A stretch of 64,000 nt of DNA from Myxococcota bacterium (GTDB lineage: Bacteria > Myxococcota_A > UBA9160 > SZUA-336), in NCBI GenBank assembly GCA_035498015.1, contig DATKAO010000018.1, forward strand, positions 1,835 through 65,834. Direction: 5' to 3'. The position numbers and the translations under genes were made by a program. Shown here one piece after another: positions 27,570-51,120 of this stretch (position 1 is its first letter; each line of letters opens with the position of its first letter). The notes beneath the pieces are model-generated. The model did no database searches. It was not told where the DNA came from and saw nothing but the letters and a program-made list of their open reading frames with translations.

Positions 27570-28928
27570 ATGGCGCGATACGACTTCGACCTGTTCGTGA
27601 TCGGCGCGGGCTCGGGCGGCGTGCGCGCGAGCCGCATGTCCGCGAGCTTCGGCGCGCGCGTGGCGGTCGCCGAGGAACGCTACCTGGGCGGCACCTGCGT
27701 GAACGTGGGCTGCATCCCGAAGAAGCTGCTCACCTATGCGGCTCACTACGCCGACGACTTCGAGGACGCGCGCGCCTACGGCTGGACGCTCGGCGAGCCG
27801 GCGTTCGACTGGGCGACGCTCGTCGCGAACAAGGACCGCGAGATCGCACGACTCAATTCGGTGTACGGCAAGCTCTTGGCCGACGCCGGCGTGAAGGTGA
27901 TCGACGCGCGCGCGCGCATCGTCGACGCGCACACGGTCGAGGCGGCGGGCAGGACCTACACGGCCGAGCACCTGCTGGTCGCGACGGGCGGCTGGCCCCG
28001 CCGGCCCGACCTGCCGGGCATCGAACACGCGATCAGCTCCAACGAGGCCTTCCACCTGAAGGAGCTGCCGCGCAGCGTGCTGGTCGTGGGCGGCGGCTAC
28101 ATCGCGGTCGAGTTCGCGGGCATCTTCCACGGGCTGGGCGCGCGAGTCACCCAGGTGCACCGGGGCGAGCTCTTCCTGCGTGGCTTCGACGACGACGTGC
28201 GCCACGCGCTGCGCAGCGAGATGGAGAAGCGCGGCATCGAGCTGCGCTTCGGCATGAAGCTCGGCTGCATCGAGCGCGCCGGCGCCGGCCTGCGCACCGT
28301 GTTCGCCGACGGCAGCGCGCTCGAGACCGACCAGGTGCTGGTGGCGATCGGGCGCGACCCGAACGTGGCGGGGCTCGGGCTCGAGGCGCTGGGCGTGGCA
28401 CTCACTCCGACCGGCGCCGTGGCGGTCGACGACTTCTCGCGCACGAGCGCCCCGAGCGTGTGCGCGATCGGCGACGTGACCGACCGGCTGAACCTCACGC
28501 CCGTGGCGATCCACGAGGCGATGGCCTACGCGCGCACGGTGTTCGGCAAGACGCCGACGCCAATCGATCACCGCGACGTGCCCAGCGCCGTGTTCAGCCA
28601 GCCGCAGCTCGGCGCGGTGGGACTCACCGAGGCAGCGGCGCGCGAGAGTCACGGCGAGCTCGACGTATATCTCAGCTCGTTCAAGCCGCTGCGCCACACG
28701 CTCACCGGCCGCGACGAGAAGACGCTGATGAAGCTCGTGGTCGAGCGCGCCGGCCAGCGGGTGGTGGGCGCGCACATGGTCGGCCCCGACGCCGGCGAGA
28801 TCATCCAGGGCATCGCGATCGCCGTGAAGCTGGGCGCGACCAAGGCGCAGTTCGACGCCACCGTCGGCATCCATCCCACCGCGGCGGAAGAGTTCGTGAC
28901 GATGCGGACGCCGGTGGCGCGCAGCTGA
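27570..28928 (+). CDS. gor: glutathione-disulfide reductase (class I pyridine nucleotide-disulfide oxidoreductase)
   Basis: MARYDFDLFVIGAGSGGVRAS...GGTCVNVGCIPKK matches the Gor N-terminus and redox-active CVNVGC. The C-terminal HPTAAEEF dimerisation-domain His is present. Confidence 0.75.
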   Translation: MARYDFDLFVIGAGSGGVRASRMSASFGARVAVAEERYLGGTCVNVGCIPKKLLTYAAHYADDFEDARAYGWTLGEPAFDWATLVANKDREIARLNSVYGKLLADAGVKVIDARARIVDAHTVEAAGRTYTAEHLLVATGGWPRRPDLPGIEHAISSNEAFHLKELPRSVLVVGGGYIAVEFAGIFHGLGARVTQVHRGELFLRGFDDDVRHALRSEMEKRGIELRFGMKLGCIERAGAGLRTVFADGSALETDQVLVAIGRDPNVAGLGLEALGVALTPTGAVAVDDFSRTSAPSVCAIGDVTDRLNLTPVAIHEAMAYARTVFGKTPTPIDHRDVPSAVFSQPQLGAVGLTEAAARESHGELDVYLSSFKPLRHTLTGRDEKTLMKLVVERAGQRVVGAHMVGPDAGEIIQGIAIAVKLGATKAQFDATVGIHPTAAEEFVTMRTPVARS

Positions 28929-29246
28929 GTCAGCGTCGCCGATCGGATCGTGCTGATCAGGATGAGGGCCGCCACGACGAGCGCGATCGCCGGGTCGAAG
29001 GCGCAGATGGGAACGAGCCCCAGTGAGTTGAACAGGTTGGCCCAGCGCAAGAATCCGCCGGAGAGTCCCGTGCGAAGCGTGTGGGCGAGGACGAGAAGAG
29101 CGAGGGCGACCTCGATCACGAGCACGCCGCCGTTCGGGAAGAATGCACCAGCCAGCGGTTTCCGACGGTGTGCCAGGGCCCTCGGCGAACGATGCCTCCG
29201 TTGGCTTCACGAGTCAACGTGAGACACGCTGTTTCCCCGCGATCGT

Positions 29247-29275
29247 TTGACACCCCCCTGGGCCTCCGATAGGTT
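29247..29275 (+). promoter_or_regulatory. sigma70-type promoter (TTGACA, 17 nt, TAGGTT) driving a leaderless mRNA
   Basis: TTGACA at 29247, a 17-nt spacer containing GGGCCTCCGA, TAGGTT at 29270, and the ATG 7 nt downstream of the -10 element. Near-identical module at 34011..34039. Confidence 0.5.
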
Positions 29276-29282
29276 CGCGCGG

Positions 29283-29657
29283 ATGCGGGAGTTTTTCTCC
29301 GCGCCCGTGAAACGAACTGCGCTCGCCGCCGCGTTGGCGCTCGCAACGCACGCGCTTCTCCCGTATCTGCACGTGCACCCCAACCCATGCAGTCCTGGCC
29401 AGTGCGCCTCCGAGGCGAGAGCCGGTCAGCCGGCATCGTCCGGCGCGGGGAGCTCGAGCTCTCCCGACGACTGCCCCGTGTGCAGCGCGCTCGCGCACGG
29501 CGGCGCCCGCGCCATCAACGCCCAGGCACCGCATCTGCTCGACTTGGTCGAGCTCTGGCTGGCGAACTCGCCGCCCGCCGCAGAAATCCTCGCGCCGACC
29601 AGCGACGTCGAAGTCGCTTGCGCGCGCGCGCCTCCTGCGCTCCCTCGCTCCGCCTAG
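29283..29657 (+). CDS. small Cys/His-rich exported protein, paralog of 34048..34428 (DUF2946-like?)
   Basis: 124 aa. Hydrophobic N-segment, CSPGQC, Ser/Gly linker, DDCPVCSALAHGG, C-terminus ...PRSA. The paralog has HCGICGAFAHGKG and ...RRSA. Confidence 0.5.
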   Translation: MREFFSAPVKRTALAAALALATHALLPYLHVHPNPCSPGQCASEARAGQPASSGAGSSSSPDDCPVCSALAHGGARAINAQAPHLLDLVELWLANSPPAAEILAPTSDVEVACARAPPALPRSA

Positions 29658-29849
29658 AGAAATCGTCAGCTACTGATCGATTCTCGGCAGAGTGCGCGAT
29701 GACGCCGAGGGGTGTCGTTCGCAGCTGACCGCCTGCCGGCCGTCGATCCAGGCGATCCGCCACGCCTGCGCAGTCACTGCGCCTCAGGAGTGGCCGTGAC
29801 CGGCCAGGTGCGCGCGCGTCGCGGGTGTCGGCCGGAGAGAGGGACGACC

Positions 29850-32195
29850 ATGAGAGGAATCACCATCGCGCTCATCTGCGCGCTGCAGCTCTGCAGCGCC
29901 GCGATTGCTTCGGCAGATCCCGCAACGCCAGCCGGCAAGGTCGTGGGGCGGATCAAGGACGCGCTCGACCGGCCGCTCGGAGGCGTCGAGCTCAAGCTCC
30001 AGGCACCGGACGGAAGCACCGTCGCCACGACCACGAGCGCACCGGACGGCCGCTTCGAGTTCGGGAACGTCGCGTCGGGCACGTACTCGCTCAGCGCCGC
30101 AAAGCAGGAGTTCGAGACCGCGACCGCCATCGTGAGCGTGAGCGGCGGAGAGACCGCTTCGGCGCAGCTCGTTCTGGCGTCGAAGACCGCGCTCGAGCTG
30201 GGAGTCGTCGCCCAGAAGCTCGACGTCGCGCGGAACTCGATCACTCCGAGCACCGGGAGCAGCGTCTACAACATCACCGAGAAGGCGATCGAGGCGCAGC
30301 CGCAGGGCGACAACTCCTCGTTCAACGAGGTCTTGCTGCGCGCGCCCGGGGTCGCGAATGACTCGTTCGGTCAGATTCACGTCCGCGGCGACCACGCGAA
30401 CCTGCAATACCGCATCAACGGCGTCCAACTGCCGGAGGGCATCAGCGGCTTCGGGCAGTCACTCGACCCCCGCTACGTCGACGGCCTGCGCCTGATCGAC
30501 GGCGCGCTTCCGGCGCAATACGGCTTCCGGACCGCTGGTGTGATCGAGATCGACACCAAGAACGGGGCCTACGAGCCCGGTGGCAGCGTCTCGATGTACG
30601 GCGGCAGCCACGGCACCATCGAGCCCAGCTTCGAGTACGGGGGCGCGAGCGACACGCTCAGCTACTTCGTGACCGGCAACTATCTCTACAACAACCTCGG
30701 CGTCGAGTCTCCCACGGGCACGATCAATCCCATTCACGACCGCTCGAATCAAGCGAAGGGCTTCGCCTACCTCTCGGGACTGCTCGATCCGACCACGCGC
30801 GTGAGTCTCATCACGGGCAACTTCGTCGGCAAGTTCGACATCCCGAACAACCCCGGCCAGATCCCCGGCTTCACCCTCAACGGCGTGCCTACCTTCTCTT
30901 CGCGCGACCTCGATGAGAATCAGTCTGAATGGAACCACTACGGAATCCTCTCGCTGCAGAAGTCGACGGAGTCGGTCGACTATCAGCTGTCGGCGTTCAC
31001 GCGCTTCAGCCAGACGCTCTTCCGACCCGACCTCGCGGGTGATCTGATCTTCAACGGAGTCGCGAGCCGGGACCTCCGAAACAGCTGGGCGAACGGCCTG
31101 CAGGGCGATGCCAGCTACAGGCTCAATGACTCGCACACAGTTCGCTTCGGCCTTCTCTTTCAGGAAGAGAAGATCACCAGCGACAACGACGTGACCGTGT
31201 TCCCGGTCGATGCGGGCGGCGCACAGACCAGCGACGTCCCCTTCACGATCACCGACAACAGCAACAAGCTCGGATACCAGTATGGCGCGTACTTGCAGGA
31301 CGAGTGGCGACTCACGAAAGAGCTCACCTTCAACTACGGTCTGCGCTACGACCGCGTAGCGGCGTTCGTCCGGGGCGGGCAGGTGAGCCCGCGCATCAAC
31401 ATGGTCTACGCCACGCCGGAGGGGACGACGCTCCACGTCGGCTGGTCGCGCTACTTCACGCCGCCGCCACTGGAGCTCGTCGCGCCGACGTCGGTTGCGG
31501 CGTTCAATGGAACGACGAACGAGTCGGCGATCCAGGCCGACTCACCCGTGAAGCCCGAGCGGACGGACTACTTCGACGCAGGGATCACGCAGGTGATCTT
31601 CCCCGGATTTCAGGTGGGGGTCGACGGGTACTACAAGAACGTCCGGAACCTGATCGACGAGGGACAGTTTGGCGCCGCGCTGATCCTCTCGCCCTTCAAC
31701 TACAAGCGGGGCTACGTTTATGGCACCGAGCTCACGGCCTCGTACCAGATCGAGAACTTCACGGCGTTCGCCAACGTGGCCTACTCGGTGGCGCGCGCGA
31801 AACAGGTGGTGTCGAGCGAGTTCGAGTTCGACCCGGACGAGCTGAACTTTATCGCCCAGCACTTCGTCTATCTGGACCACGACCAGCGCTACACCACGTC
31901 GTTCGGGGTTTCATATCTGTGGAGAGATACCCGGTTCACGGTGGATTGCCTGACGAGCAGTGGTCTGCGTCGCGGCTTCGCGAACACGGAGAAGCTTCCC
32001 GCCTACGAGCCCGTGAACATCGGCATCTCGCACGTCTTTCGCGTCGGCTCATTCGGCACTCTCACCGTGCGTGGCGACATCATCAACCTGTTCGACGAAG
32101 GCTACGAGATCCGCGACGGCAGCGGGATCGGGGTCGGCGCGCCGCAGTTCGGACAACGCCGCTCGTATTACGCCGGTATCTCGAAGAGTTTCTGA
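29850..32195 (+). CDS. TonB-dependent receptor with N-terminal carboxypeptidase-regulatory-like domain
   Basis: ATG at 29850 after GGAGAGAGGGA. Signal peptide. Cna-B/CarbopepD-reg-like segment GRIKDALDRPLGGVELKLQAPDGS...GRFEFGNVASGTYSL, then plug and barrel, C-terminal ...GISKSF. Confidence 0.85.
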   Translation: MRGITIALICALQLCSAAIASADPATPAGKVVGRIKDALDRPLGGVELKLQAPDGSTVATTTSAPDGRFEFGNVASGTYSLSAAKQEFETATAIVSVSGGETASAQLVLASKTALELGVVAQKLDVARNSITPSTGSSVYNITEKAIEAQPQGDNSSFNEVLLRAPGVANDSFGQIHVRGDHANLQYRINGVQLPEGISGFGQSLDPRYVDGLRLIDGALPAQYGFRTAGVIEIDTKNGAYEPGGSVSMYGGSHGTIEPSFEYGGASDTLSYFVTGNYLYNNLGVESPTGTINPIHDRSNQAKGFAYLSGLLDPTTRVSLITGNFVGKFDIPNNPGQIPGFTLNGVPTFSSRDLDENQSEWNHYGILSLQKSTESVDYQLSAFTRFSQTLFRPDLAGDLIFNGVASRDLRNSWANGLQGDASYRLNDSHTVRFGLLFQEEKITSDNDVTVFPVDAGGAQTSDVPFTITDNSNKLGYQYGAYLQDEWRLTKELTFNYGLRYDRVAAFVRGGQVSPRINMVYATPEGTTLHVGWSRYFTPPPLELVAPTSVAAFNGTTNESAIQADSPVKPERTDYFDAGITQVIFPGFQVGVDGYYKNVRNLIDEGQFGAALILSPFNYKRGYVYGTELTASYQIENFTAFANVAYSVARAKQVVSSEFEFDPDELNFIAQHFVYLDHDQRYTTSFGVSYLWRDTRFTVDCLTSSGLRRGFANTEKLPAYEPVNIGISHVFRVGSFGTLTVRGDIINLFDEGYEIRDGSGIGVGAPQFGQRRSYYAGISKSF

Positions 32196-32196
32196 G

Positions 32197-32844
32197 ATGA
32201 CATCGAACCTGACGGAGACACTGGCTGCGCTGCGCATCGGGGGCGCCGTCATCTACCCGCTCCTGGCGCTGGCGGTGCTCGCCGGGGTGATCGCGCTCGA
32301 CAAGTGCTGGGTGTACCTGCGCTGGACGCGTCTGCCGGCGCAGATCACCGATACCCTCGAAGAGTTCGGCTTCGACTGGAGCGGGCTCGAGAAGCAGCTC
32401 GCGAACGTCGATGGCCGGAACTACCTGGCGCGCTTCCTGGGTGTGATCGCGGAGAACCGTGAGCACCCCGCATGGTGGGTCGAGTCACGCGCCGCCGACG
32501 AGGCCAGCATGATCGAGCGCGCGCTCGCGCGCGGTCTCTGGGTGCTGGAGACGATCGTGACTGCTGCGCCGCTGCTCGGGCTGCTCGGCACCATCACCGG
32601 CATGATCCGCTCCTTCCACCTGTTCGGAGACCAGAGCCTGGTGGACCCGCGTGGCGTGACCGGCGGAGTCGCCGAAGCGCTGATCGCGACGGCGGTAGGG
32701 CTCTTGATCGCGCTCGCCGCCCTCTTCGCGTTCAATCTGCTGTCGAACTGGCAGACGGCCTTCATGGACCAGATGGAGCGGCTCGGTACGCGGCTGGTCG
32801 ACCACATCCGGCTCGACGAGGAGAAGTCCGATGCGGCTCCGTAG
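32197..32844 (+). CDS. exbB: MotA/TolQ/ExbB proton-channel protein
   Basis: 3-TM topology with the conserved TAAPLLGLLGTITGMI region. Start 2 nt after the receptor stop. Confidence 0.85.
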   Translation: MTSNLTETLAALRIGGAVIYPLLALAVLAGVIALDKCWVYLRWTRLPAQITDTLEEFGFDWSGLEKQLANVDGRNYLARFLGVIAENREHPAWWVESRAADEASMIERALARGLWVLETIVTAAPLLGLLGTITGMIRSFHLFGDQSLVDPRGVTGGVAEALIATAVGLLIALAALFAFNLLSNWQTAFMDQMERLGTRLVDHIRLDEEKSDAAP

Positions 32845-33229
32845 ACAGCGGCGCGCACGGCGCGGGCGCATCGAGATCATCCCGATGATCGACGTGATGT
32901 TCTTCTTGCTCGCCACGTTCATGCTCGCCTCGCTCGCGCTGCAGAACCTGCACTCCCTGCGCGTCGACCTGCCGCAGGGTAGAGCGGATCCGCTGCAGGC
33001 GCACTCGCCACTCACCCTGGGCGTGACGCGCGACGGGACGATCTACGTGAACGAGGTCGCGCTCACGCTGGACGATCTTGCTCCGGCGCTGCGGGCGATG
33101 CTCCACGGCGCCGATGACATCGTGGTCTCGGCCGACGCGGCCGCACCGGAGGGAGTCGTCGTGCAGGCGATGCTACGCGCGCGCGACGCTGGCGCGCAAC
33201 ACTTTCTGATCGCGGTCAGACGCGACTGA
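32831..33229 (+). CDS. exbD: biopolymer transport protein ExbD/TolR
   Basis: IEIIPMIDVMFFLLATFMLAS TM helix and a periplasmic domain. 132 aa. Confidence 0.85.
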   Translation: MRLRRQRRARRGRIEIIPMIDVMFFLLATFMLASLALQNLHSLRVDLPQGRADPLQAHSPLTLGVTRDGTIYVNEVALTLDDLAPALRAMLHGADDIVVSADAAAPEGVVVQAMLRARDAGAQHFLIAVRRD

Positions 33230-33248
33230 CACCGAACGGTGTTGGACG

Positions 33249-33905
33249 ATGGATAGCTCCTGGCAGCGACTGCCGTTCACGCTCCCGGGCGCGATCGTCC
33301 TCACCTCGACCTTGATGCTCGGCTTCCTGCGCCTCATGTCTCTCGGGGCGGCGGTGACCGCGCCGCCCGCGCCGCTGGACGCCCGCTTCGTCGAGATCGG
33401 ACCTCCGGAAGCCTCGGCGGCCGCGGCAGCACCTGCCGCCCCACCCGACGTCGCACCGCGCAGGAAGGTGCCTGCCGAGTCGAGGCCGCGGCCGAAGCCC
33501 GAGGCTGCGCAGCGGCCGGCGCCAGCCTCTGCAGCGCCGGAGACGGCGGGGCCAGCGGCCGCCGAATCGGGCGCCGAGACCTCGGCGAGTGCCGCTCGCA
33601 GCCAGCCGAGCGAGGCGCACGGCGGCGCTCCCGGGGGGAGCATGAGCGCACGCGCACTCTACAAGCCGCTGCCCGAGATTCCCGAACGGCTGCGACGCCA
33701 TGACGTGGAGCTCGTCGCGGTCGCACGCTTCCTGGTCGCGGCGGATGGCACCGCGCAGGTGGAGCTGATCGAGCCCACCAGCGAGCCGAGTCTGAATCAG
33801 AGCTTGTTGGTCACGCTTCGCACCTGGCGCTTCTTTCCAGCGCTCGAGCAGGGCCGGCCCGTCGCGTCCACGATCGATCTCCGGATCCCGATCTCGGTGC
33901 GCTGA
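33249..33905 (+). CDS. tonB: energy transducer TonB
   Basis: N-terminal anchor, Pro/Ala-rich spacer, C-terminal PEIPERLRRHDVELVAVARFLVAADGTAQVELIEPTSEPSLNQSLLVTLRTWRFFP TonB-C domain. Confidence 0.8.
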   Translation: MDSSWQRLPFTLPGAIVLTSTLMLGFLRLMSLGAAVTAPPAPLDARFVEIGPPEASAAAAAPAAPPDVAPRRKVPAESRPRPKPEAAQRPAPASAAPETAGPAAAESGAETSASAARSQPSEAHGGAPGGSMSARALYKPLPEIPERLRRHDVELVAVARFLVAADGTAQVELIEPTSEPSLNQSLLVTLRTWRFFPALEQGRPVASTIDLRIPISVR

Positions 33906-34010
33906 CCGCAAAGACCCAGGCGTGAGTCATGAGTAGCTTGTTAGCTGCGCCGGGTCACTGCACGCGACTACACAATTGTGTGACGGACCACGGCGCGGAC
34001 CCGAAGCGCG

Positions 34011-34039
34011 TTGACACCGATGGGGGCCTCCGATAGTTT
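34011..34039 (+). promoter_or_regulatory. sigma70-type promoter (TTGACA, 17 nt, TAGTTT) driving a leaderless or near-leaderless mRNA; paralog of 29247..29275
   Basis: TTGACA at 34011, spacer CCGATGGGGGCCTCCGA, TAGTTT at 34034, ATG at 34048. A 12-bp perfect palindrome ACACAATTGTGT lies 30 nt upstream. Confidence 0.5.
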
Positions 34040-34047
34040 GCGCGGCG

Positions 34048-34428
34048 ATGGGGACTCTCGCTCGCGAGGCGCTTCGCCGGGCAACGCTGCTCGGCTTGCT
34101 CGCGCTCGCGTCCGCGACGGTGTTGCCGTCCGTGCACGCGATCGTCGGCGGCTGCGCTCACGCCGTGTCGGCTTGCGACGCCTCCGACCATCAGGAGAGC
34201 GCGAGAGATGGCGCTGCTGGCTCGACGAGTCATAGGAGTCACTGCGGCATCTGTGGCGCGTTCGCACACGGCAAGGGCCGGAGCCTCGCATTGGGTCCCG
34301 CCCCGTCGGTGGCCTCGCCGCTGCTAGGCATCCCGGGCGCGCCTTTCGTTCCGGTCGTGGTCCTCTCCAGCAGCGACCGCGATGTGGCAGGTGCGCGCGC
34401 GCCGCCCGCTTCCCGTCGATCTGCCTGA
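34048..34428 (+). CDS. small Cys/His-rich exported protein, paralog of 29283..29657
   Basis: 126 aa. Hydrophobic N-segment LLGLLALASATVLPSVHA, CAHAVSAC, HCGICGAFAHGKG, C-terminal ...RRSA. Confidence 0.5.
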   Translation: MGTLAREALRRATLLGLLALASATVLPSVHAIVGGCAHAVSACDASDHQESARDGAAGSTSHRSHCGICGAFAHGKGRSLALGPAPSVASPLLGIPGAPFVPVVVLSSSDRDVAGARAPPASRRSA

Positions 34429-34477
34429 AAGAAGTCGTCAGTCACTCTGAGGCTTTCTCTTTTTTTCGGAGGATGCG

Positions 34478-35749
34478 ATGGGACCCGCACGTTCGGTGTC
34501 TCGCGCGGCGGTGGCGCTGGCCGCACTCGCCGCTCTCTCGTCGCCGGGCCTGGCTCGCGCCGAGACCGACTCACAACAGATTGCCGCCCTGAAGCAGGAG
34601 CTCGCCGCCACCAAAGGCGAGCTGTCTCGCACCCAGTCCGCGCTCGAGGCGCTCGAGCGCAAGGTCGACGCGCTGGGCGCCGCGCCGGCAGCCGCTGCGC
34701 CGGCGCCAGTCACTCCGAGCGACACCGCGCGGCTCGCGCCGGTGAACGCGGACAACCCGGCGATCAGCTTCGTGATCGACGCCCAGGCCGGTACCAACAC
34801 GCAGGGAAATGACGGCGTCGGCTTCCTGCTGGGCACGGGCGAGCTGTTCATCTCGGCGCCGATCGACCCGTTCCTGCGCGGCTACGCCAGCATCAACGGC
34901 ACGACCGACGAGGGCTTCGACATCGAGGAGGCGGCGCTGGTCACGACGGCTCTGCCGGGGAACCTCACCGTGAAGGGCGGGCGTTTCTTCGCCGACTTCG
35001 GGCGCTTTCCGCACTGGCACGACGAGGCGCTGCCCTTCGTCAAGCGGCCCGACTCGATCGAGCGCTTCATCGGCGGCGAATCGAAGTCCGAAGGCGCCGA
35101 AGTTTCCTGGCTGGCGCCCATGGACCAGTATCTCAACGTCAGCGTCGGGGTCTACAACTCCGTCGGCGCCGAGCGCTTCGAGGATCCGGCCATGTTCGGC
35201 GAGGACAAGGGCCAGCGATCGTTCAGCGAGCTGACCTACCTGGTGCATCCGACGACCTACTTCGACCTCACCGACACGCTGAATCTGGAGCTGGGCGGGA
35301 CTTACCTCAGCGTGCCGACCGGTGCGAAGCGCGGCCTCTACGGCCTCGACGCGACGCTCCGGCACCAGCCGGGCACGAGCGAGTTCTACCAGGGGACCGA
35401 CGTCGGCGTGGAGTGGCTGTGGAGCACCGAGCGCTTCGTGAACGCCGAGCTCGAAGACGGTGGGACCGTCTCGGGCCGCTTCCGGCGCGACGGCGGCTAC
35501 GCGTACTTCGAGAGCTTCTTCGGCCGGCGCTTCTCGGTCGGTGGGCTCTTCGACTACGCCGAGAACCTGTTCGGGCCCAAAGACCTGCAGCGCACTTACT
35601 CGGCCTTCATCACCTGGAAGCCGTCCGAGTTCCAGCGGCTGCGGCTGCAGTGGGACGACGTGGGCATCGACGGTCCGGACAACCAGCGCTTCACGCTGCA
35701 GTGGACCGCCTTCATCGGGAGTCACAGCCATGGTTTCTCGCAGCGTTAG
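34478..35749 (+). CDS. secreted coiled-coil plus beta-rich protein, putative outer-membrane channel in the zinc-uptake cluster
   Basis: Signal peptide, N-terminal coiled coil (QQIAALKQELAATKGELSRTQSALEALERKVDAL), then alternating amphipathic beta-strand-like segments. GGAGGA RBS. Directly upstream of znuA. Confidence 0.45.
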   Translation: MGPARSVSRAAVALAALAALSSPGLARAETDSQQIAALKQELAATKGELSRTQSALEALERKVDALGAAPAAAAPAPVTPSDTARLAPVNADNPAISFVIDAQAGTNTQGNDGVGFLLGTGELFISAPIDPFLRGYASINGTTDEGFDIEEAALVTTALPGNLTVKGGRFFADFGRFPHWHDEALPFVKRPDSIERFIGGESKSEGAEVSWLAPMDQYLNVSVGVYNSVGAERFEDPAMFGEDKGQRSFSELTYLVHPTTYFDLTDTLNLELGGTYLSVPTGAKRGLYGLDATLRHQPGTSEFYQGTDVGVEWLWSTERFVNAELEDGGTVSGRFRRDGGYAYFESFFGRRFSVGGLFDYAENLFGPKDLQRTYSAFITWKPSEFQRLRLQWDDVGIDGPDNQRFTLQWTAFIGSHSHGFSQR

Positions 35750-36662
35750 CGCCGCCCTCGCGGCGGCAGTCACTTGGAGTCTCGCGCTCGGCGCGGCAGG
35801 GGCGCTGCGCGTGGTCGCGTCGCTGCCCGACGTGGCCGACATGACGCGTCAGATCGGCGGCGACCGGGTCGACGTGACCACCATCGCCGAGGGCGGCCAG
35901 GACCCGCACAAGGTCCCGGTCAAGCCCTCGTTCGTGACCAAGCTGAACCGCGCCGACGCGCTGGTCGTGCAGGGGCTCGGGCTCGAGCACGCGTATCTCC
36001 CCGCGCTGATCGAGGCTTCGCGCAACCCGAAGATCGCGCCCGGCGCGGCCGCGTACATCGACGCGTCGCTCTACGTGCAGCCGCTCGAGGTGCCGGAGAG
36101 TCAGAACCGCGCGCAGGGCGAGCTCCACCCCTTGGGCAACCCGCACTTCAACCTGGACCCCGGCGAGGGCAAGCAGATGGCGCGCGCGATCGCCGAGGGA
36201 CTCACGCGCGTCGACCCGGACGGCGCGGCAGCCTACGCGGCCGGCCTCGCGCGCTACGAGAAGACGCTCGACGACAAGATCGCCGAATGGAACCAGCTGG
36301 CGGCGCCGCTGCGCGGGCTGAAGGTCGTTTCCTATCACCCCGACCTCGTGTATCTCGCGCGGCGCTACGGACTGGAGCTGGTGGGCACGATCGAGACCAG
36401 GCCCGGCGTGCCCGCCACGCCGGGTCACATCGCGGAGCTGGTGGCCTCCATGAAGCAGAAGAAGGTGGAGCTGGTGGTGCGCGAGGTGGCCTACGAGCTG
36501 CCGCTCGCCCAGGAGGTGGCCGAGCAGGCGGGCGCGAAGGTGGTCACGCTGTCCACGCTCACCGGCGGCCTGCCCGGCTCGGGTCCGACCTACATCGACT
36601 TCGTCGACGCCAACCTGCGCGCGCTGGTCGCCGCCGCGAAGCAGCAGGCCGGGAGTCACTGA
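35730..36662 (+). CDS. znuA: periplasmic zinc/manganese ABC transporter substrate-binding protein (TroA/ZnuA family)
   Basis: VVASLPDVADMTRQIGGDRVDVTTIAEGGQDPHKVPVKPS and ELHPLGNPHFNLDP: cluster-9 metal-binding motifs with conserved His residues. Confidence 0.75.
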   Translation: MVSRSVSAALAAAVTWSLALGAAGALRVVASLPDVADMTRQIGGDRVDVTTIAEGGQDPHKVPVKPSFVTKLNRADALVVQGLGLEHAYLPALIEASRNPKIAPGAAAYIDASLYVQPLEVPESQNRAQGELHPLGNPHFNLDPGEGKQMARAIAEGLTRVDPDGAAAYAAGLARYEKTLDDKIAEWNQLAAPLRGLKVVSYHPDLVYLARRYGLELVGTIETRPGVPATPGHIAELVASMKQKKVELVVREVAYELPLAQEVAEQAGAKVVTLSTLTGGLPGSGPTYIDFVDANLRALVAAAKQQAGSH

Positions 36663-37316
36663 GTGGAGGAGGAGCTGATCCGCGTGGAGCGCGCGACGCT
36701 GGGCTATCCCGGGCGCGTGGTGCTGCGCGACGTGTCGCTCGCGCTCCGCCCCGGCGAGTTCGTGGCGGTGCTGGGCGCCAACGGCTCGGGCAAGACCACG
36801 CTCTTGCGCAGCCTGCTCGGCTTCCTGCCGCCGCTGCTCGGCCGCGTGGAGCGCGCGGCCGGGCTGCGCGTGGGCTACGTGCCCCAGCGCGAGACACTCG
36901 ACGACCTGTACCCGCTCACCGCGGGCGACGTGGCGCTCATGGGCACCTACGCCGACGTGCCGTTCTGGCGCCTGCTCGGCGCAGGCGAGCGGGAGCGCGC
37001 GCGGCGGGCGCTCGCGGCTTGCGGGGCGACCGGCTTCGAGCGGCTGCGCTACTCGGAGCTCTCGGGCGGCCAGCGCCAGCGCGTGCTGATCTCGCGCGCC
37101 CTGGCGACCGAGCCGCAGCTGCTCTTGCTCGACGAGCCGACCGCGGGCGTGGACCACGAGACCGAGCAGGCGATCGTGCGCGTGCTGGCCGCCCTGCGCA
37201 GCGAGCGCTCGCTGGCGGTCTGGATCGTGACTCACCATGCCGAGGCGGTGCTCGGCGCGGTCGACCGCGTGATCCAACTCGGCGCCGGCACCGCGGCGGA
37301 GGTGCGTGCGCAATGA
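36663..37316 (+). CDS. znuC: zinc/manganese ABC transporter ATP-binding protein
   Basis: Walker A GANGSGKTT, signature LSGGQRQRV, Walker B LLLDEPTAGVD. GTG start abutting the znuA stop. Confidence 0.85.
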   Translation: MEEELIRVERATLGYPGRVVLRDVSLALRPGEFVAVLGANGSGKTTLLRSLLGFLPPLLGRVERAAGLRVGYVPQRETLDDLYPLTAGDVALMGTYADVPFWRLLGAGERERARRALAACGATGFERLRYSELSGGQRQRVLISRALATEPQLLLLDEPTAGVDHETEQAIVRVLAALRSERSLAVWIVTHHAEAVLGAVDRVIQLGAGTAAEVRAQ

Positions 37317-38668
37317 GCGAGCTGTTCTCACCGGACTTCCTGTTCCGCAACGCCGTGTACGGGGGCTGGATCGTGTGCGTCCTGTGCGCGCTGCTCGGGG
37401 TGTACGTGGCGCTGCGGCGCATGGTGCTCCTGGGCCTGGCGCTGCCGCAGGCCGGCGCGGCCGGCATCGCGTTTGTGTTTCTCGTGACCCACCACGTGCA
37501 CGGCGACGCCGGCGGTGCGCACGGGGTCGCGCTCGCGGGCTCGCTGGCCGCGACCTTCGCGGCGCTCGGACTCCTGGTCGCAGGCGCGCGCGGCTCGCGC
37601 ACGCCGGTGGAGTGGCGCATCGGCGCGGTGCTCGCGGTGGCCTCGGCGCTGACCCTGTTCTGTGTCTCGCTGAATCCGAGCGGCGACCTCGAGATGACGA
37701 GCCTGCTGCGCGGCGAGCTGCTCGCCATCTCGGACCGCGACCTGGCGGTGCTGGCAGTCACCGCCGGGCTCGTGCTGGTCGGCTTCGTGCTGTTCCGCCG
37801 CGACCTCCTGCTGGTCTCGTTCGACCGCGAGTTCGCGCGCACGGTCGGCAAGAGCCCGACCCGCTGGGACGCGTTGCTCTACGCGCTGCTCGGCGTGGGC
37901 ATCTCGGTCGGCGTGATGACGGCCGGGCCGATGGTGGTGTTCGGGTTCCTGGTGCTGCCGGCGCTCGCCGCGCTGCGCGTCACGAGTCGCCTGGCGGCGA
38001 CCTTCGCGCTCGCGGCCGCGATCGGCAGCGTGTGCGCGCTCGGCGGCTTCGAGATCTCGTATCGCGCGGACCTGCCCGCAGGCCCGGTGTACGTGCTGCT
38101 CGCGGCGGCGATCTGGCTGGCGATCAGTGGCGTGGCGCGGCTGCGGCGGCGGCGCGCCGTGGCGAGAGCGCTCGGGCTGCTGCTCGCGGCGCTGCTCCTG
38201 CCGGGCTGCGCGACGACCCGCGGAACGGTGCTTCCGCCGCTCGAAGGCCGCTCGGTGGCCGTGCTGCCGTTCCGCAACGAGACCGGCGCGAGCCTGCGCC
38301 TGGCCTCGCCCAACCCGCTCCAGGAGGTGACTCGCGCGCTGGGCCGCGCCTCGGCCGATCCGCCCGCGACCGTGCTCGACGTGCTCGAGGCCAGCGCCGT
38401 GCGCGAGCTCGCGCAGCGCGGCTACCGGGTCGCGCCGAGTGACTTCCCGCCCGTGAATCTCGTCGGCACGCTCTACGTCTTCGACCGCCCCGCAGACGAG
38501 CCGCTGCGCGTCCGGCTCGAGCTCGAGCTCGTCGACCCGGCCGACGGCTCGGTGCTGTGGCGCGGCGGCGCACGCCGCCCGGTGCCCGTGCCGGCCGCGC
38601 AGACGCTGGCCGAGGTCGCGCAAGATGCCGCGCCCAGCATCTTTGCCGAGGCCTTCGCGGCGCACTGA
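37313..38668 (+). CDS. znuB: ABC-3 family metal permease (ZnuB-like) fused in frame to a C-terminal lipoprotein-type domain
   Basis: ATG at 37313 overlapping the znuC stop. 8-TM permease with no stop codon, continuing into RLRRRRAVARALGLLLAALLLPGC (signal-peptide-like with a lipobox) and an SVAVLPFRNETG module. Internal in-frame GTG candidates at 38132 and 38159. Confidence 0.7.
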   Translation: MSELFSPDFLFRNAVYGGWIVCVLCALLGVYVALRRMVLLGLALPQAGAAGIAFVFLVTHHVHGDAGGAHGVALAGSLAATFAALGLLVAGARGSRTPVEWRIGAVLAVASALTLFCVSLNPSGDLEMTSLLRGELLAISDRDLAVLAVTAGLVLVGFVLFRRDLLLVSFDREFARTVGKSPTRWDALLYALLGVGISVGVMTAGPMVVFGFLVLPALAALRVTSRLAATFALAAAIGSVCALGGFEISYRADLPAGPVYVLLAAAIWLAISGVARLRRRRAVARALGLLLAALLLPGCATTRGTVLPPLEGRSVAVLPFRNETGASLRLASPNPLQEVTRALGRASADPPATVLDVLEASAVRELAQRGYRVAPSDFPPVNLVGTLYVFDRPADEPLRVRLELELVDPADGSVLWRGGARRPVPVPAAQTLAEVAQDAAPSIFAEAFAAH

Positions 38669-49333: not shown

Positions 49334-50053
49334 ATGGAAGGCCACCAATCGGCGCTGATTTTCGCGCTGGGGCACATGACCATCGAGGGTAAGGTCACGA
49401 TGAGCCTGCTCTTCGTGCTCTCGCTGCTCTCGTGGGCCGTGATCTTCAGCAAGTGGATTGCCGTGATCCGGCAGCGCCGCGCGATGCGCCGGTTCGACGA
49501 AGCCTACGCCGAGCTGCAGGACTCACTGACGCTCGACACCGAGGCGAAAGGTCTGGCGCAGGCGCCGGCGCTGACCGTGTACGAAGCCATGCGCGAGGAG
49601 ATCGACCGGCAGACGGCGAAGGGCGCGCGCTCTCTGTCGGAGCGCAACCTGCCGTCGCTGCACGCGGTGCTCGAGAAGAGCGTGAACATCGAGTCGCTGG
49701 CGCTCGAGTCCGGCACGATCGTGCTGGCGATGGCGATCTCGGGCGGTCCGTTCATCGGACTCACCGGCACGGTGTTCGGCGTGATGGAGACCTTCTCGGG
49801 CGTCGCGCAGGCCGGTCAGGCGAACCTGGCCGCGATGGCGCCCGGCGTCGCGGGCGCGCTGGTCAACACGATCGTGGGCCTGGTCGTCGCGATCCCGGCG
49901 CTGTTCGCGTACAACCTGATCACCAAGTCGATCCAGGGCATCCAGGTCGCGCTCACGGGCTTCGCGACCGACCTCGAAGCGCGCGTGATCTCCGAGCACT
50001 ACCGCGGCGAGCGGGGCGAGCGCGACGTGCCCAAGCTCGCGGCGAGTCACTGA
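49334..50053 (+). CDS. MotA/TolQ/ExbB-family proton-channel protein (second module)
   Basis: 3-TM protein with a GPFIGLTGTVFGVMETF signature. Confidence 0.8.
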   Translation: MEGHQSALIFALGHMTIEGKVTMSLLFVLSLLSWAVIFSKWIAVIRQRRAMRRFDEAYAELQDSLTLDTEAKGLAQAPALTVYEAMREEIDRQTAKGARSLSERNLPSLHAVLEKSVNIESLALESGTIVLAMAISGGPFIGLTGTVFGVMETFSGVAQAGQANLAAMAPGVAGALVNTIVGLVVAIPALFAYNLITKSIQGIQVALTGFATDLEARVISEHYRGERGERDVPKLAASH

Positions 50054-50065
50054 GGCAGGTGACCC

Positions 50066-50467
50066 GTGAAAGCCCCTCAGCGCGGCGGCGTCGTCGCAGA
50101 CATCAACATCACCCCGCTGCTCGACCTGGCGTGGGTGCTGCTCGTGATCTTCATCCTCACGACCACCACGATCGTGCAGGGCATCGACCTCAAGCTCCCC
50201 GACGCGTCCAAGGAGCAGAAGCAGGAGATTCCGACCGAGGTCGTGACCATCTCCCTCGACCAGACGGGCACGATCTTCGTCAACGAGGAGCCCATGCCGC
50301 TGGAGCGGATGATGGAGAAGCTCCGCCTGTACAAGCTCGCGAACCCTGATTTGCCGGTGATCCTGCGCGCGGACAAGCGGCTCTACTACGAGCAGGTCGT
50401 GAAAGTGCTCGACGGCATCAAGCGCGTGCCCGTCGAGAATCTGGCCGTGGCCACGGAGGTGGAATGA
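50066..50467 (+). CDS. ExbD/TolR-family protein (second module)
   Basis: GTG start. ADINITPLLDLAWVLLVIFIL TM helix and a periplasmic domain. Confidence 0.8.
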   Translation: MKAPQRGGVVADINITPLLDLAWVLLVIFILTTTTIVQGIDLKLPDASKEQKQEIPTEVVTISLDQTGTIFVNEEPMPLERMMEKLRLYKLANPDLPVILRADKRLYYEQVVKVLDGIKRVPVENLAVATEVE

Positions 50468-51120
50468 CTCCCCAGCAGTCGACTCAGAAGAAGAAACGGA
50501 AGCGCGGCTCGAACCTGCCGGTCGTGATCGGCTTGGTGGTCGGCATTCATGCCGTGATGGGCGGCGGACTCTACGCACTCACTCAGACCGACGCCGGTCA
50601 GGAGTTCATCCGCATCCACAAGATCAAGTTTCTCGAGCCCGAGCAGGAGAAGCAGGAAGAGGCCAAGGCCCCGGAGCCGCCGCCTCTGCCGCCGCCCATC
50701 CAGCAGCAGGTCGAAGCTCCCACGGTGAGTGCAGCGCCGGCCCCGACCACCAGCGCGCCGTCGGTCTCGATCGGCGGCGGCGGCGGTACGAACTGGAGCG
50801 GTGGCAAGTTCATCGGCGGGCTCGAGGACGGCCCGATGGGCGCGTTCCACGCCGGCGTGCTGGGGCGGATCCGCAGCTGCTTCGGCAGCTGGACCGGACC
50901 GTCTCGTCCGGCCGAGGTCGCGCTCGACGTGAGTCACGAGGGATCGGTCGTCTCGTACAAGCTCGTCCACGGCACCGGATCGACCGCCGAGGACGACCAG
51001 CTCATGGACGCGGTCCGCTGCGTCCAGCAGAAGGGCGTCGGTGCTCCCCCCGAAGGCGTCGGACGCGTCGTGACCCTGCGCCTCCGGCCGTCCCACGGGG
51101 TCGCCAGTGGTCAGGGTTAG
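50464..51120 (+). CDS. TolA/TonB-like energy-transducing protein
   Basis: ATGA overlap with the upstream stop. Basic N-terminus plus TM helix, Glu/Lys and Pro-rich spacer, C-terminal VALDVSHEGSVVSYKLVHGTGSTAEDDQLMDAVRCV resembling TolA domain III / the TonB-C fold. Confidence 0.6.
   Translation: MTPQQSTQKKKRKRGSNLPVVIGLVVGIHAVMGGGLYALTQTDAGQEFIRIHKIKFLEPEQEKQEEAKAPEPPPLPPPIQQQVEAPTVSAAPAPTTSAPSVSIGGGGGTNWSGGKFIGGLEDGPMGAFHAGVLGRIRSCFGSWTGPSRPAEVALDVSHEGSVVSYKLVHGTGSTAEDDQLMDAVRCVQQKGVGAPPEGVGRVVTLRLRPSHGVASGQG

Follow-up and report, generated by a model that had tools for sequence, protein, structure and literature searches.

CruR/CutF-like upstream open reading frames as probable metal-responsive leader peptides of two uptake operons in a Myxococcota bacterium

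Two small paralogous open reading frames, uORF A (29283–29657, 124 aa) and uORF B (34048–34428, 126 aa), each form the first cistron of an operon whose transporter genes follow on the same strand, in the 64,000-nucleotide stretch of Myxococcota DNA analyzed here (the window). All features described below lie on the forward (+) strand. The two ORFs are most likely members of the known CruR/CutF (DUF2946) family of metal-sensing arrest-peptide upstream ORFs. With a probability of roughly 0.7, they act in cis as regulatory leader peptides, that is, as RAPP-stalling metal switches for uptake genes, and not as transport components. The original prediction was right about the paralogy of the two ORFs, their link to metal-transport operons and their resemblance to DUF2946, but the periplasmic or surface metal chaperone or metallophore-like role that it proposed is unsupported in light of the studied relatives and of the constraints on RAPP and its spacing.

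Sequence features and family membership

uORF A is the ATG-started version of a listed ORF at 29247–29657. Its product has an export helix at approximately residues 7–30, including LLPYLH, a first Cys pair (C36/C41, CSPGQC), a CPVC motif at residues 64–67 (nt 29472–29483), AH at 71–72, and an RAPP motif at 115–118 (nt 29625–29636) followed by a six-residue tail, ALPRSA. uORF B has the same parts: an export helix, C36/C43 (CAHAVSAC), CGIC at 66–69 (nt 34243–34254), AH at 73–74, RAPP at 117–120 (nt 34396–34407) and the six-residue tail ASRRSA. Direct reading of the sequence gave the C-termini as ...ARAPPALPRSA and ...ARAPPASRRSA and confirmed all the motifs quoted previously; what had been described as a Pro-rich tail with a nearly identical C-terminus is present, but is actually an invariant RAPP motif plus the six-residue tail. 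The tail of uORF B uses rare A/T-ending codons (CGT CGA TCT), which are conserved in a genome with a third-position GC content of ≈90%. When the two proteins were compared by BLASTP, they aligned with 34% identity over 103 aa (E = 1e-9).

Searches with the Pfam DUF2946 model (PF11162, curated cutoff 23.7 bits) gave full-length but sub-threshold matches, at 20.9 bits (E = 6.6e-4) for uORF B and 11.1 bits for uORF A, and 11 of 24 clade members matched at E ≤ 0.01. A profile built from the clade recovered 84 proteins with the same architecture from 1.84 billion representative proteins, and 54 of the 72 that were scanned were PF11162-positive. Profile–profile alignment by hhalign between the clade and a set of 50 out-clade members, 35 of which were PF11162-positive at 1e-3, yielded a probability of 99.4% (E = 5e-22) over 122 columns. 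The originally suggested relationship to DUF2946 is real.

In CruR and CutF, which are regulatory upstream ORFs acting in cis, the nascent chain senses metal and stalls the ribosome at a RAPP or Pro-rich motif (PMC9426467; 10.1101/2022.11.11.516240; 10.1101/2025.02.05.636593; PMC12992588). RAPP has been seen as an arrest motif by cryo-EM (PMC10951233), and toeprinting of CruR assigned Pro3 to the P-site and Pro4 to the A-site (PMC12992588). The features by which PMC9426467 defines the family, namely an N-terminal hydrophobic helix, CxxC, a fixed spacing and RAPP, were all found in uORFs A and B, although their tail after RAPP has six residues compared with three in CruR. CxxC and RAPP are invariant in the clade alignment, with the exception of the uORF B orthologue L001B, in which the second Cys and the His are gone but RAPP is kept, suggesting that metal sensing is not obligatory in every copy. 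The first Cys pair is missing from one clade subgroup.

CxxC and RAPP are separated by exactly 47 aa in every one of the 24 clade members, whereas the N-terminal part can be anywhere between 46 and 66 aa long and the 47-aa spacer itself is poorly conserved in sequence (majority-residue fraction 0.49). In the wider family the spacing is 43–49 aa; the literature value is 45 ± 1–2 aa. This combination of an invariant RAPP, an invariant spacing and a variable spacer fits a ruler for the ribosome tunnel and not a folded binding protein. AlphaFold predicted no stable fold for the uORF peptide (pLDDT 61.7, pTM 0.27), with confidence in the N-terminal helix only.

Operon context, conservation and predicted promoters

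As originally described, uORF A precedes a TonB-dependent receptor and exbB–exbD–tonB, and uORF B an outer-membrane protein and znuACB. The receptor (29850–32195) has an N-terminal CarboxypepD_reg domain (Pfam PF00593, 4e-31; PF13620, 7e-14). It matched no specific NCBIfam equivalog, and its sole match among PDB sequences was a weak one to the colicin I receptor. The genes exbB (32197–32844; MotA_ExbB, 8e-26), exbD (32831–33229; ExbD, 4e-21) and tonB (33249–33905; TonB_C, 1.4e-6) together (32197–33905) make up the dedicated energising complex of this operon.

In the second operon, the gene at 34478–35749 encodes a porin-like outer-membrane protein with a signal peptide, a coiled coil and a β-barrel of ≈16 strands. 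The protein had no match in Pfam or among PDB sequences and belongs to an uncharacterised family with more than 415 homologues; the best Foldseek matches of its AlphaFold model (pLDDT 74.7, pTM 0.68) were the porins OprP (2o4v, TM 0.52) and MOMP (5ldt). It is followed by a zinc-type ABC importer (35730–38668) comprising a ZnuA-like binding protein (35730–36662; Pfam ZnuA, 9e-55), an ATPase (36663–37316; ABC_tran, 8e-27) and a permease with a C-terminal extension (37313–38668). The best NCBIfam match was AztC. The best solved relative of the binding protein was Synechocystis ZnuA (2ov1/1pq4, E = 3e-24), with which three His ligand positions (DPH, NPH and YHP) align.

Both ORFs are conserved within a small clade of uncultured Myxococcota. 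The two-uORF layout of the window recurs at loci L001 and L003, and at L007/L011 the order of the genes is unchanged except that additional ones lie between tonB and uORF B; exbB–exbD–tonB synteny is kept in L001, L003 and L007. A single uORF followed by porin–znuACB was found at L005 and L010, and the distant porin–znuACB loci L019, L020 and L021 are also headed by a CxxC...RAPP ORF, with spacings of 47, 47 and 45 aa.

Each uORF has a predicted promoter of its own, deduced from conservation. That of uORF A (29247–29275) consists of TTGACA (29247–29252), a 17-nt spacer ending in CCTCCGA and TAGGTT (29270–29275), and that of uORF B (34011–34039) of TTGACA (34011–34016), a 17-nt spacer with the same ending and TAGTTT (34034–34039). 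The ATG lies 7 and 8 nt, respectively, past the −10 box, suggesting that the mRNAs are probably leaderless. The arrangement TTGACA–17–TAG(G/T/C)(T/C)T, then 7–9 nt and ATG, is kept in 13 of 16 orthologous or paralogous loci. A generic consensus promoter scan did not call the uORF A promoter because its −10 box matches only three of the six TATAAT positions. Upstream of promoter B, a palindrome, CTACACAATTGTGTGAC (33968–33984), is conserved as TACAC-N6-GTGAC, 23–31 nt 5′ of the −35 box, in seven B-type or single-type loci, and is a candidate transcription-factor operator.

Downstream RNA and proposed mechanism

The region between uORF A and the receptor gene (29658–29849) is 192 nt long, GC-rich and structured, with a modest fold z-score of −1.79. 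It carries a conserved element, TCGTCAGCTACTGATCGAT, directly past the uORF A stop codon, and the receptor Shine–Dalgarno sequence, GGAGAGAGGGA, at 29834–29844. It contains no match to an Rfam family and no intrinsic terminator, and the C/G ratio is 1.6–2.0 over the first 60 nt from RAPP. In an RNAalifold consensus of five loci, the tail codons of uORF A pair with the Shine–Dalgarno region, and 10 pairs of this consensus are retained despite changes on both sides.

Downstream of uORF B, both the MFE and centroid folds contained a stem-loop at 34411–34483 predicted to mask the ribosome-binding site. Here, the uORF B tail codons, together with the stop and a purine run (TCCCGTCGATCTGCCTGAAAGAAG), are predicted to base-pair with a pyrimidine run and with the Shine–Dalgarno sequence (GGAGGA, 34468–34473) and AUG (34478) of the porin gene, and a small hairpin lies within the stem. 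The alignment consensus had the same architecture. The duplex between tail and ribosome-binding site was computed at −24.9 kcal/mol, a value that only 2.4% of shuffles reached, but the z-score of the stem-loop was only −1.17 and the invariance of the 3′ arm leaves hardly any covariation in the helix; the masking stem-loop is a weak prediction overall. For the two window tails, complementarity to the downstream ribosome-binding site exceeded that of 97.6–99.2% of shuffles, but it was not significant in L003B, L010, L017, L020, L021 and most A-type loci. When a ribosome was modelled as parked on RAPP, accessibility of the ribosome-binding site rose only slightly. The first Pro of RAPP is encoded by the rare codon CCT in 6 of 10 loci, giving an anti-Shine–Dalgarno sequence, CCUCC; in neighbouring genes, 3% of Pro codons are CCT.

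By extrapolation from the Bordetella and Rhodobacter systems, we propose that each uORF would be transcribed from its own σ70-type promoter as the first cistron of a probably leaderless mRNA, and that the N-terminal signal or anchor helix would bring the nascent chain to the Sec translocon during translation. Once the first Pro codon of RAPP occupies the P-site and the second one the A-site, peptide bond formation would be blocked and the ribosome would stall. The CxxC(-x4-His) sensor, 47 residues behind the arrest point, would then be just out of the exit tunnel, at or beyond the translocon. Scarce metal would leave the stall in place and the downstream genes on. At uORF B, the stalled ribosome would cover the tail codons and free the porin Shine–Dalgarno sequence and AUG 49 nt downstream, an unmasking of the SecM/CutF type. 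At uORF A, the stall might block Rho loading or termination, a route of the CruR type, or open the long-range pairing between tail and Shine–Dalgarno sequence, or both. When metal is replete, its binding to CxxC/His would compact or pull the nascent chain, releasing the arrest; translation would then run to the end of the uORF, and the uptake genes (TonB-dependent receptor with exbBD–tonB; porin with znuACB) would be turned off.

Alternative readings and the metal ligand

In a window of 70% GC with many spurious long ORFs, and in which R[AG]PP occurs 41 times in six-frame translation, functionless chance frames were also considered. This reading was refuted by conservation: the relatives form ≈23 protein clusters with invariant motifs and constant length, the position of promoter and ATG is kept, and the homology to DUF2946 is clear. 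The third-position GC content of the named frames (0.82 for uORF A and 0.77 for uORF B) supports coding, and the composite pattern CxxC, 40–52 aa, R[AG]PP, ≤12 aa and stop was confined to uORFs A and B in the six-frame translation of the whole window. We also give little credence to the view that the peptides are exported and, in mature form, supply the receptor and ZnuABC with Zn or Cu as chaperones or metallophore-like peptides. The export signal, the conserved CxxC and His, the extra Cys pair and the adjoining metal transporters would suit such a role, a copper chaperone role was initially conjectured for CutF (cited in PMC9426467), and a released peptide may have a dual or secondary role. 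However, a binding protein needs neither RAPP nor a spacer of fixed length and variable sequence, the peptide was confidently modelled only in its helix, and one subgroup lacks the first Cys pair. No known chaperone family was matched in Pfam or NCBIfam, and these operons hold no peptide-modification genes. Among the relatives, CruR escaped detection by proteomics and is presumed to be short-lived (PMC9426467), and neither cutF nor copL acts in trans (10.1101/2022.11.11.516240).

If the uORFs are arrest peptides, their polarity might be that of CutF, which is opposite to that of CruR, with metal inducing or prolonging the stall and turning the downstream genes on. With its short intergenic region (49 nt) and predicted masking hairpin, the stretch after uORF B resembles CutF–cutO (10.1101/2022.11.11.516240), but we consider this polarity improbable, as the controlled genes are uptake systems, whose induction by excess metal would be physiologically perverse, and as metal turns expression off through CruR, the one studied uORF upstream of a TonB-dependent receptor (PMC9426467). 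It is possible, if rather unlikely, that both uORFs sense copper and that the ZnuA-like system is copper-regulated or not a zinc importer. All characterised CxxC-type DUF2946 members sense copper, and CxxC is a classic motif for Cu(I); copper operons are where most Cys-type CutF-like proteins and cruR homologues are found, and cruR–crtA operons sometimes contain exbBD–tonB, like the operon of uORF A (PMC9426467; PMC12914433; 10.1101/2022.11.11.516240). Against this, neither operon has a copper-specific gene (PepSY_TM, PCuAC, Sco, CopC/YcnI, multicopper oxidase or Cus), the receptor fails to match copper-type TonB receptor models, and the binding protein is nearest to zinc-specific ZnuA, with the His ligands aligned. 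Cluster A-I binding proteins are known to handle Zn, Mn and Fe, but are not known to handle Cu. The uORF–porin–znuACB linkage is also kept over wide divergence.

For the metal-responsive leader peptides that we favor, the ligand of uORF B is most likely Zn(II), because a zinc-type binding protein is under its control; that of uORF A may be Zn or Cu. It is less usual for a copy of this family to head a zinc-type ABC importer operon, as uORF B does. Since a like uORF precedes porin–znuACB in distant loci as well, zinc specificity of this type of uORF is possibly a novel feature of the family.

Two paralogous upstream ORFs related to DUF2946

The two small ORFs of the original prediction, ORF A (29283–29657, forward strand, 124 aa) and ORF B (34048–34428, forward strand, 126 aa), both starting with ATG, were confirmed, together with all of the motifs quoted for them. 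ORF A contains C36 and C41, a CPVC motif at residues 64–67 and AH at 71–72, and ends in ...ACARAPPALPRSA; ORF B contains C36 and C43, CGIC at 66–69 and AH at 73–74, and ends in ...AGARAPPASRRSA. By BLASTP, the two are paralogs, as had been proposed, with 34% identity across 103 residues (E = 1e-9). The region has a GC content of ≈70% and many spurious ORFs; third-position GC peaked in the named frames, at 0.82 for ORF A and 0.77 for ORF B. When a six-frame translation of the 64-kb window was searched for CxxC followed by 40–52 aa, R[AG]PP, up to 12 aa and a stop, only ORF A and ORF B matched. Close homologs at the protein level were few and fell into ≈23 clusters, all metagenomic or from MAGs labeled Myxococcota, and four MAGs in a species-level genome collection carried close homologs.

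PF11162, the Pfam model for DUF2946, was the top Pfam match for both ORFs and aligned nearly end to end, with scores below the gathering threshold of 23.7 bits (20.9 bits, E = 6.6e-4, for ORF B; 11.1 bits, E = 0.71, for ORF A). Among 24 close relatives of the two ORFs, referred to in the following as the clade, 11 matched PF11162 at E ≤ 0.01, with 1.4e-6 as the lowest E-value, and one protein, P0019, carried a precomputed PF11162 assignment. An NCBIfam scan of both ORFs gave no matches. The profile of the clade alignment (A1), run against 1.84 billion representative proteins, retrieved 84 matches at E ≤ 1e-3, all of which have a hydrophobic N-terminus, LPxxH, CxxC and R[AG]PP close to the end; 54 of the 72 that were scanned were PF11162-positive. 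Comparison by hhalign of the clade with 50 matches from outside it, a set itself picked by the clade profile and containing 35 PF11162-positive proteins at 1e-3, gave a probability of 99.4% (E = 5e-22, 122 columns). Because of the hhalign result and the PF11162-positive profile matches, the kinship with DUF2946 named in the original prediction proved correct, and by profile comparison ORF A and ORF B are divergent members of this family.

Putative sensor motif, ruler and arrest motif

DUF2946 is no longer a family of unknown function, since CruR and CutF have been studied (PMC9426467; 10.1101/2022.11.11.516240). In Bordetella pertussis, CruR (Bp2923) is encoded by an upstream ORF (uORF) and its nascent product senses copper via CXXC, relieving arrest at a C-terminal RAPP motif, which permits Rho-dependent termination in a 162-nt intergenic region before a TonB-dependent transporter gene (PMC9426467). 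The CXXC–RAPP spacing in the CruR family is 45 residues ± 1–2, more than 95% of DUF2946 members have an export signal, and the mature CruR peptide was undetectable (PMC9426467). Toeprinting of CruR showed arrest with Pro3 of RAPP in the P-site and Pro4 in the A-site, and TonB-dependent receptor genes are preceded by an excess of uORFs with RAPP or RGPP (PMC12992588). CutF of Rhodobacter capsulatus is exported co-translationally, and copper binding strengthens stalling at its Pro-rich C-terminus (10.1101/2022.11.11.516240 = PMC9973294; 10.1101/2025.02.05.636593); the stall melts a stem-loop masking the cutO ribosome-binding site (10.1101/2022.11.11.516240; 10.1101/2025.02.05.636593). [quoted passage not shown]

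ORF A and ORF B (hereafter uORF A and uORF B) begin with basic residues followed by a hydrophobic stretch of ≈18–20 residues, either a signal peptide or an anchor. In uORF A, this stretch has a Kyte–Doolittle peak of 1.8 at residue 12, and AlphaFold placed a helix at residues 7–30 with pLDDT 79–90. In the 24 relatives of A1, the invariant residues, in uORF A numbering, were L26, P27 and H30, which belong to the LLPYLH that closes the hydrophobic helix, together with C64, C67, A71, R76 and A114-R115-P117-P118; H72 was kept in at least 90%. The putative sensor residues are the CxxC and a nearly invariant His four residues on, with H30 invariant, and many members have an additional His three residues ahead of the first Cys. 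The RAPP motif lies at residues 115–118 of 124 in uORF A and 117–120 of 126 in uORF B, in both cases followed by six residues and the stop codon; in the wider family, this tail has 1–10 residues, 3 and 6 being the commonest lengths.

The distance from CxxC to RAPP was 47 intervening residues in uORF A, in uORF B and in all 24 clade members, and 43–49 residues, with a mode of 46–47, in 70 wider relatives. Within the clade, the number of residues ahead of the CxxC ranges between 46 and 66. The sequence of the spacer is poorly conserved, with a majority-residue fraction of 0.49 compared to 0.93 for the A.ARAPP block. A ruler spanning the ribosomal tunnel and the translocon would need just this, a constant length and a sequence free to vary; the opposite pattern would be expected of a folded binding domain.

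The B-type uORF of the related locus L001 (P0031, L001 14712–15089) has lost two residues of the sensor motif (HCAVRSTLAW), its second Cys and the His after that. It retains RAPP, as well as the promoter and, downstream, the ribosome-binding site. Arrest can therefore probably outlast the loss of metal control, and this copy may be metal-blind and arrest constitutively. Residues 92–106 of uORF B (34321–34365) form a second strongly hydrophobic stretch, LLGIPGAPFVPVVVL (Kyte–Doolittle 2.1), ≈10 residues before RAPP, which has no counterpart in uORF A and, given a preprint on "transmembrane-induced stalling" in CutF, could influence arrest.

We put the probability that uORF A and uORF B are arrest-peptide uORFs of the CruR/CutF class at about 0.7. 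The original prediction had suggested periplasmic or surface metal chaperones or metallophore-like peptides, and the link to metals that it drew is borne out, as both ORFs head metal-transport operons. The role itself found no support. Periplasmic metallochaperones of the CusF, CopC/YcnI, PCuAC, ZinT or AztD kinds would be expected to show a recognizable metal-binding fold; apart from DUF2946, there was no Pfam or NCBIfam match, and the AlphaFold2 model built with the family alignment had a mean pLDDT of 61.7 and a pTM of 0.27, with helix 7–30 as its only confident part. For a RiPP metallophore precursor, such as methanobactin MbnA or the bufferins, modifying enzymes would be needed, and the operons contain neither MbnB/MbnC nor an MNIO/DUF692 protein with its partner. 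What the two peptides have instead is the 47-residue spacing and RAPP. The monitors of Sec and YidC, SecM, ApdA and ApdP, resemble uORF A and uORF B in being exported through an N-terminal signal and in carrying an arrest motif of the RAPP/RAGP type near the C-terminus; in these, force on the nascent chain frees the arrest, and the stalled ribosome remodels the mRNA, exposing a downstream ribosome-binding site (PMC7897499; PMC10951233; PMC10987492). However, they regulate secA, secDF or yidC, whereas the genes downstream here are the receptor, the porin and znuACB, with no localization factor among them, and the peptides have a CxxC/His motif at a fixed distance from RAPP.

Within the preferred arrest-peptide class, CruR is the prototype. 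Like both uORFs, it is a small exported peptide heading an operon, with CXXC, ≈45 residues and a C-terminal RAPP; as with uORF A, a long GC-rich intergenic region (162 nt, compared to 192 nt here) and a TonB-dependent transporter gene follow, and relatives of cruR–crtA sometimes carry exbBD–tonB, as operon A does (PMC12914433). Its logic, in which an uptake system is repressed by its own metal, also matches the operons in the window. CruR differs in its spacing (45 residues instead of 47), its RAPP tail (3 residues instead of 6), its PepSY_TM partner gene, which has no counterpart here, and its host, which belongs to the Proteobacteria rather than the uncultured Myxococcota. In addition, the receptor in the window has a CarboxypepD_reg N-domain, the promoter geometry is apparently leaderless, and the Pfam scores are sub-threshold. 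CutF is likewise a DUF2946 member, with a Sec signal, a metal motif containing Cys and a Pro-rich stalling motif at the C-terminus; the stem-loop in its short intergenic region shields a ribosome-binding site and is melted by the stalled ribosome, and for uORF B and the porin gene, across 49 nt, we predict the same arrangement. The stem-loop of uORF B is weakly supported statistically. CutF, which copper switches on, acts on a detoxifying multicopper oxidase gene, whereas the genes here encode importers, for which the opposite polarity would be expected.

The CruR/CutF class was described in publications from 2022 to 2025, so the two ORFs are most likely further members and the mechanism itself is not new. 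In the literature searched, we found no DUF2946-type leader peptide ahead of a ZnuABC-type importer with a dedicated porin, no tandem diverged paralogs at one locus, no apparent leaderless arrangement and no occurrence in Myxococcota.

Operon organization, predicted promoters and proposed coupling to expression

As the original prediction had it, uORF A is followed by a TonB-dependent receptor gene and exbB–exbD–tonB, and uORF B by an outer-membrane protein gene and znuACB. Each uORF is the first gene, on the same strand as the metal-transport genes. In the double layout, the order is gor, uORF A, receptor, exbB, exbD, tonB, uORF B, porin, znuACB and aat, as seen in the window and in related loci L001 and L003, and in L007/L011 with added genes between tonB and uORF B. 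The single layout, gor, uORF, porin, znuACB and aat, was found in L005 and L010. The occurrence of both layouts suggests that the uORF–porin–znuACB unit is the older one and that the receptor block, which has a uORF and a promoter of its own, was inserted beside it or arose by duplication. The only genes that accompany the uORFs in the operons are those for the receptor, exbB, exbD, tonB, porin and znuACB, flanked by gor/folB and aat. In the MAG carrying L007/L011 (contig JBGQIB010000023.1), uORF B lies ≈7.6 kb past tonB, and because of this distance the uORF A and uORF B operons are separable units. Three more distant loci, reached via the porin (58–67% identity), again had a small CxxC/RAPP ORF ahead of porin–znuACB, with spacings of 47, 47 and 45 residues and tails of 8, 6 and 6; because of these, the linkage of the uORF to a ZnuABC-type importer is, as judged by gene order, conserved well beyond the clade. 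Upstream of uORF B in L016 (1–1791) are genes for a P-type ATPase and an M23 peptidase. Elsewhere in the window, a second exbB–exbD pair (49334–50467), which precedes a 218-aa ORF and the gene of a 1659-aa protein containing a TPS (two-partner secretion) domain (51107–56086), is unrelated to the uORFs.

Upstream of uORF A, we found a TTGACA box, a 17-nt spacer and TAGGTT (29247–29275, forward strand), with the ATG 7 nt past the −10 box; upstream of uORF B are TTGACA, a 17-nt spacer and TAGTTT (34011–34039, forward strand), with the ATG 8 nt past the −10 box. CCTCCGA is conserved at the 3′ end of the spacer in both promoters. Neither ATG is preceded by a Shine–Dalgarno sequence. The geometry recurs in 13 of 16 related loci, with an ATG start in every one of those uORFs. 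From this geometry and its conservation, we predict a sigma-70-type promoter giving a leaderless mRNA. A generic promoter scan called no promoter at either uORF, the −10 box having three of the six TATAAT positions, so the prediction depends on comparative conservation. An AT-rich palindrome, CTACACAATTGTGTGAC (33968–33984), lies upstream of the uORF B promoter. Seven B-type or single-type loci share it in the form TACAC-N6-GTGAC, 23–31 nt ahead of the −35 box, and it may act as the operator of a transcription factor. A Pfam scan of ten further window ORFs resembling regulators found no Fur/Zur-family protein among them. The A-type loci have a different conserved motif, in the window GAGTCAAC-N5-AGACAC (29211–29227), which precedes the −35 box of uORF A by ≈20 nt.

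The model is at its weakest in how arrest would be coupled to expression. For uORF B, a stalled ribosome would unmask the ribosome-binding site of the porin gene, 49 nt downstream. In both MFE and centroid folds, the tail codons, the stop codon and a purine run (UCCCGUCGAUCUGCCUGAAAGAAG) pair with a pyrimidine run, the GGAGGA Shine–Dalgarno sequence and the porin AUG, and the stem contains a small hairpin; the consensus from 10 aligned loci has an identical architecture. The predicted stem is supported by its rank, as the duplex between tail and ribosome-binding site beats 97.6% of dinucleotide shuffles, and by codon usage: the A/T-ending tail codons (CGT CGA TCT) are kept in six loci in spite of a genome third-position GC of ≈90%, and the first Pro of RAPP is the rare CCT in 6 of 10 loci, compared to 3% of Pro codons in neighboring genes. 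It is weakened by a fold z-score of −1.17, by covariation that is nearly absent because the 3′ arm is invariant, by modeling of accessibility with a parked ribosome, where the opening of the ribosome-binding site was small and inconsistent, and by its orthologs. In shuffle tests, the complementarity was significant in the window's two uORFs and close relatives of B, and not in L003B, L010, L017, L019–L021 or most A-type loci, and we do not claim this pairing as a universal mechanism. When the ribosome-binding site was scanned against every 30-nt window of the uORF, the arrest zone was the top partner only in uORF A and uORF B of the window and in L005; the GC-rich sequence supplies many strong alternative partners.

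The intergenic region between uORF A and the receptor gene (29658–29849) is 192 nt long, with 190–211 nt in relatives, GC-rich and structured (fold z-score −1.79). In A-type loci, TCGTCAG..CTGATCGAT pairs with GTCGATC..GACGA over ≈70 nt, with 10 pairs preserved despite changes on both sides in five loci, and in the consensus the uORF tail codons pair with the receptor Shine–Dalgarno sequence. A metagenome scan with the protein alignment gave only three loci, too few for covariation to be analyzed in depth. An Rfam search of 28900–34600 at E ≤ 1 returned no family, and the region is thus not a known riboswitch or leader; it may be an undescribed leader RNA structure. A generic scan found no intrinsic terminator in either intergenic region. 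The RAPP-tail region of uORF A is C-rich and G-poor (C/G 1.6–2.0), as expected for a Rho loading site. Because of the folds, the pairing and this skew, we favor unmasking for uORF B and, for uORF A, CruR-like Rho control, long-range unmasking or both.

Controlled genes, metal ligand and implications

The controlled genes are all on the forward strand. The receptor gene (29850–32195) gave only a weak match to the colicin I receptor in a PDB sequence search and is followed by exbB, exbD and tonB (32197–33905). The porin-like protein (34478–35749) had no Pfam match and no PDB sequence match. Its predicted structure (pLDDT 74.7, pTM 0.68) consists of a signal peptide, an N-terminal coiled coil and a ≈16-strand barrel, and the closest structures are porins, OprP (TM 0.52) and MOMP; more than 415 homologs form a family without a Pfam model. 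Two His-rich motifs, HWHDE (179–183) and GSHSHGF (414–420), are invariant. In every locus examined, znuACB directly follows the porin gene, with a 20-nt overlap between porin and znuA, and because of this adjacency the protein is a candidate metal-selective porin.

The ZnuA-like binding protein (35730–36662) retains in alignment the histidines of DPH, NPH and (Y/F)HP, positions that we take to be the zinc ligands of Synechocystis ZnuA. Of the proteins with solved structures, Synechocystis ZnuA (2ov1/1pq4, E = 3e-24) and further zinc-binding proteins are the closest to it, and NCBIfam ranked AztC, a zinc protein, slightly above MntC. For these reasons, zinc is most likely its substrate, with manganese also possible. 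The ABC ATPase (36663–37316) is followed by a ZnuB-like permease (37313–38668, 451 aa). The permease has a C-terminal extension of ≈170 aa that opens with a lipobox-like LLLPGC past the last transmembrane helix and reflects either fusion to a lipoprotein-like domain or a gene boundary that was missed; orthologs have 477–490 aa, and that in L021 has 281 aa and no extension.

In the arrest-peptide model, the stall would persist when metal is scarce, so that the uptake genes are expressed, and would be released when metal is sufficient, shutting expression off. By analogy with CruR, this polarity would be physiologically sensible, as both operons encode uptake machinery. Our confidence in the ligand, the polarity and the coupling is lower than in the class assignment. 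The sensor residues are compatible with a Cys2His(2) zinc site, and equally with Cu(I). For uORF B, the context favors zinc; for uORF A, either zinc or copper is possible, copper because cruR–crtA operons with exbBD–tonB exist (PMC12914433). There is precedent beyond copper in the His-only CutF-like proteins ahead of HupE/UreJ (clusters 14 and 17; 10.1101/2022.11.11.516240) and in the Caulobacter DUF2946 genes CC2720 and CC1775 (PMC4176598), which adjoin Ni/Co systems, Zn/Cd systems (czrCBA) and TonB-dependent receptors. Tentatively, and with the odds somewhat against it, uORF B and perhaps uORF A could be zinc-responsive arrest peptides, in which Zn(II) at CxxC-x4-His, possibly with H30 or the upstream His, would release the RAPP stall and close porin–ZnuABC import; the tandem paralogs would then separately control outer-membrane TonB-dependent uptake and uptake from periplasm to cytoplasm, possibly with distinct ligands.

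With this analysis, two "hypothetical proteins" become predicted regulatory elements, a plausible but probably wrong chaperone annotation is corrected, and an uncharacterized, widespread porin-like family is tied to ZnuABC systems. The locus is a compact natural experiment, with two diverged sensors, identical 47-residue rulers and differing intergenic regions (49 vs. 192 nt). Regulation of zinc import is generally credited to Zur, and a zinc riboswitch was undescribed according to the authors of the CruR study (PMC9426467). If the zinc reading is true, the sensing of metals by CruR/CutF nascent peptides, shown so far for copper only, would extend to zinc import, and the locus would provide both the first nascent-chain, non-Zur sensor of zinc in control of the import of this metal and a case in which a sensor was duplicated inside one locus.
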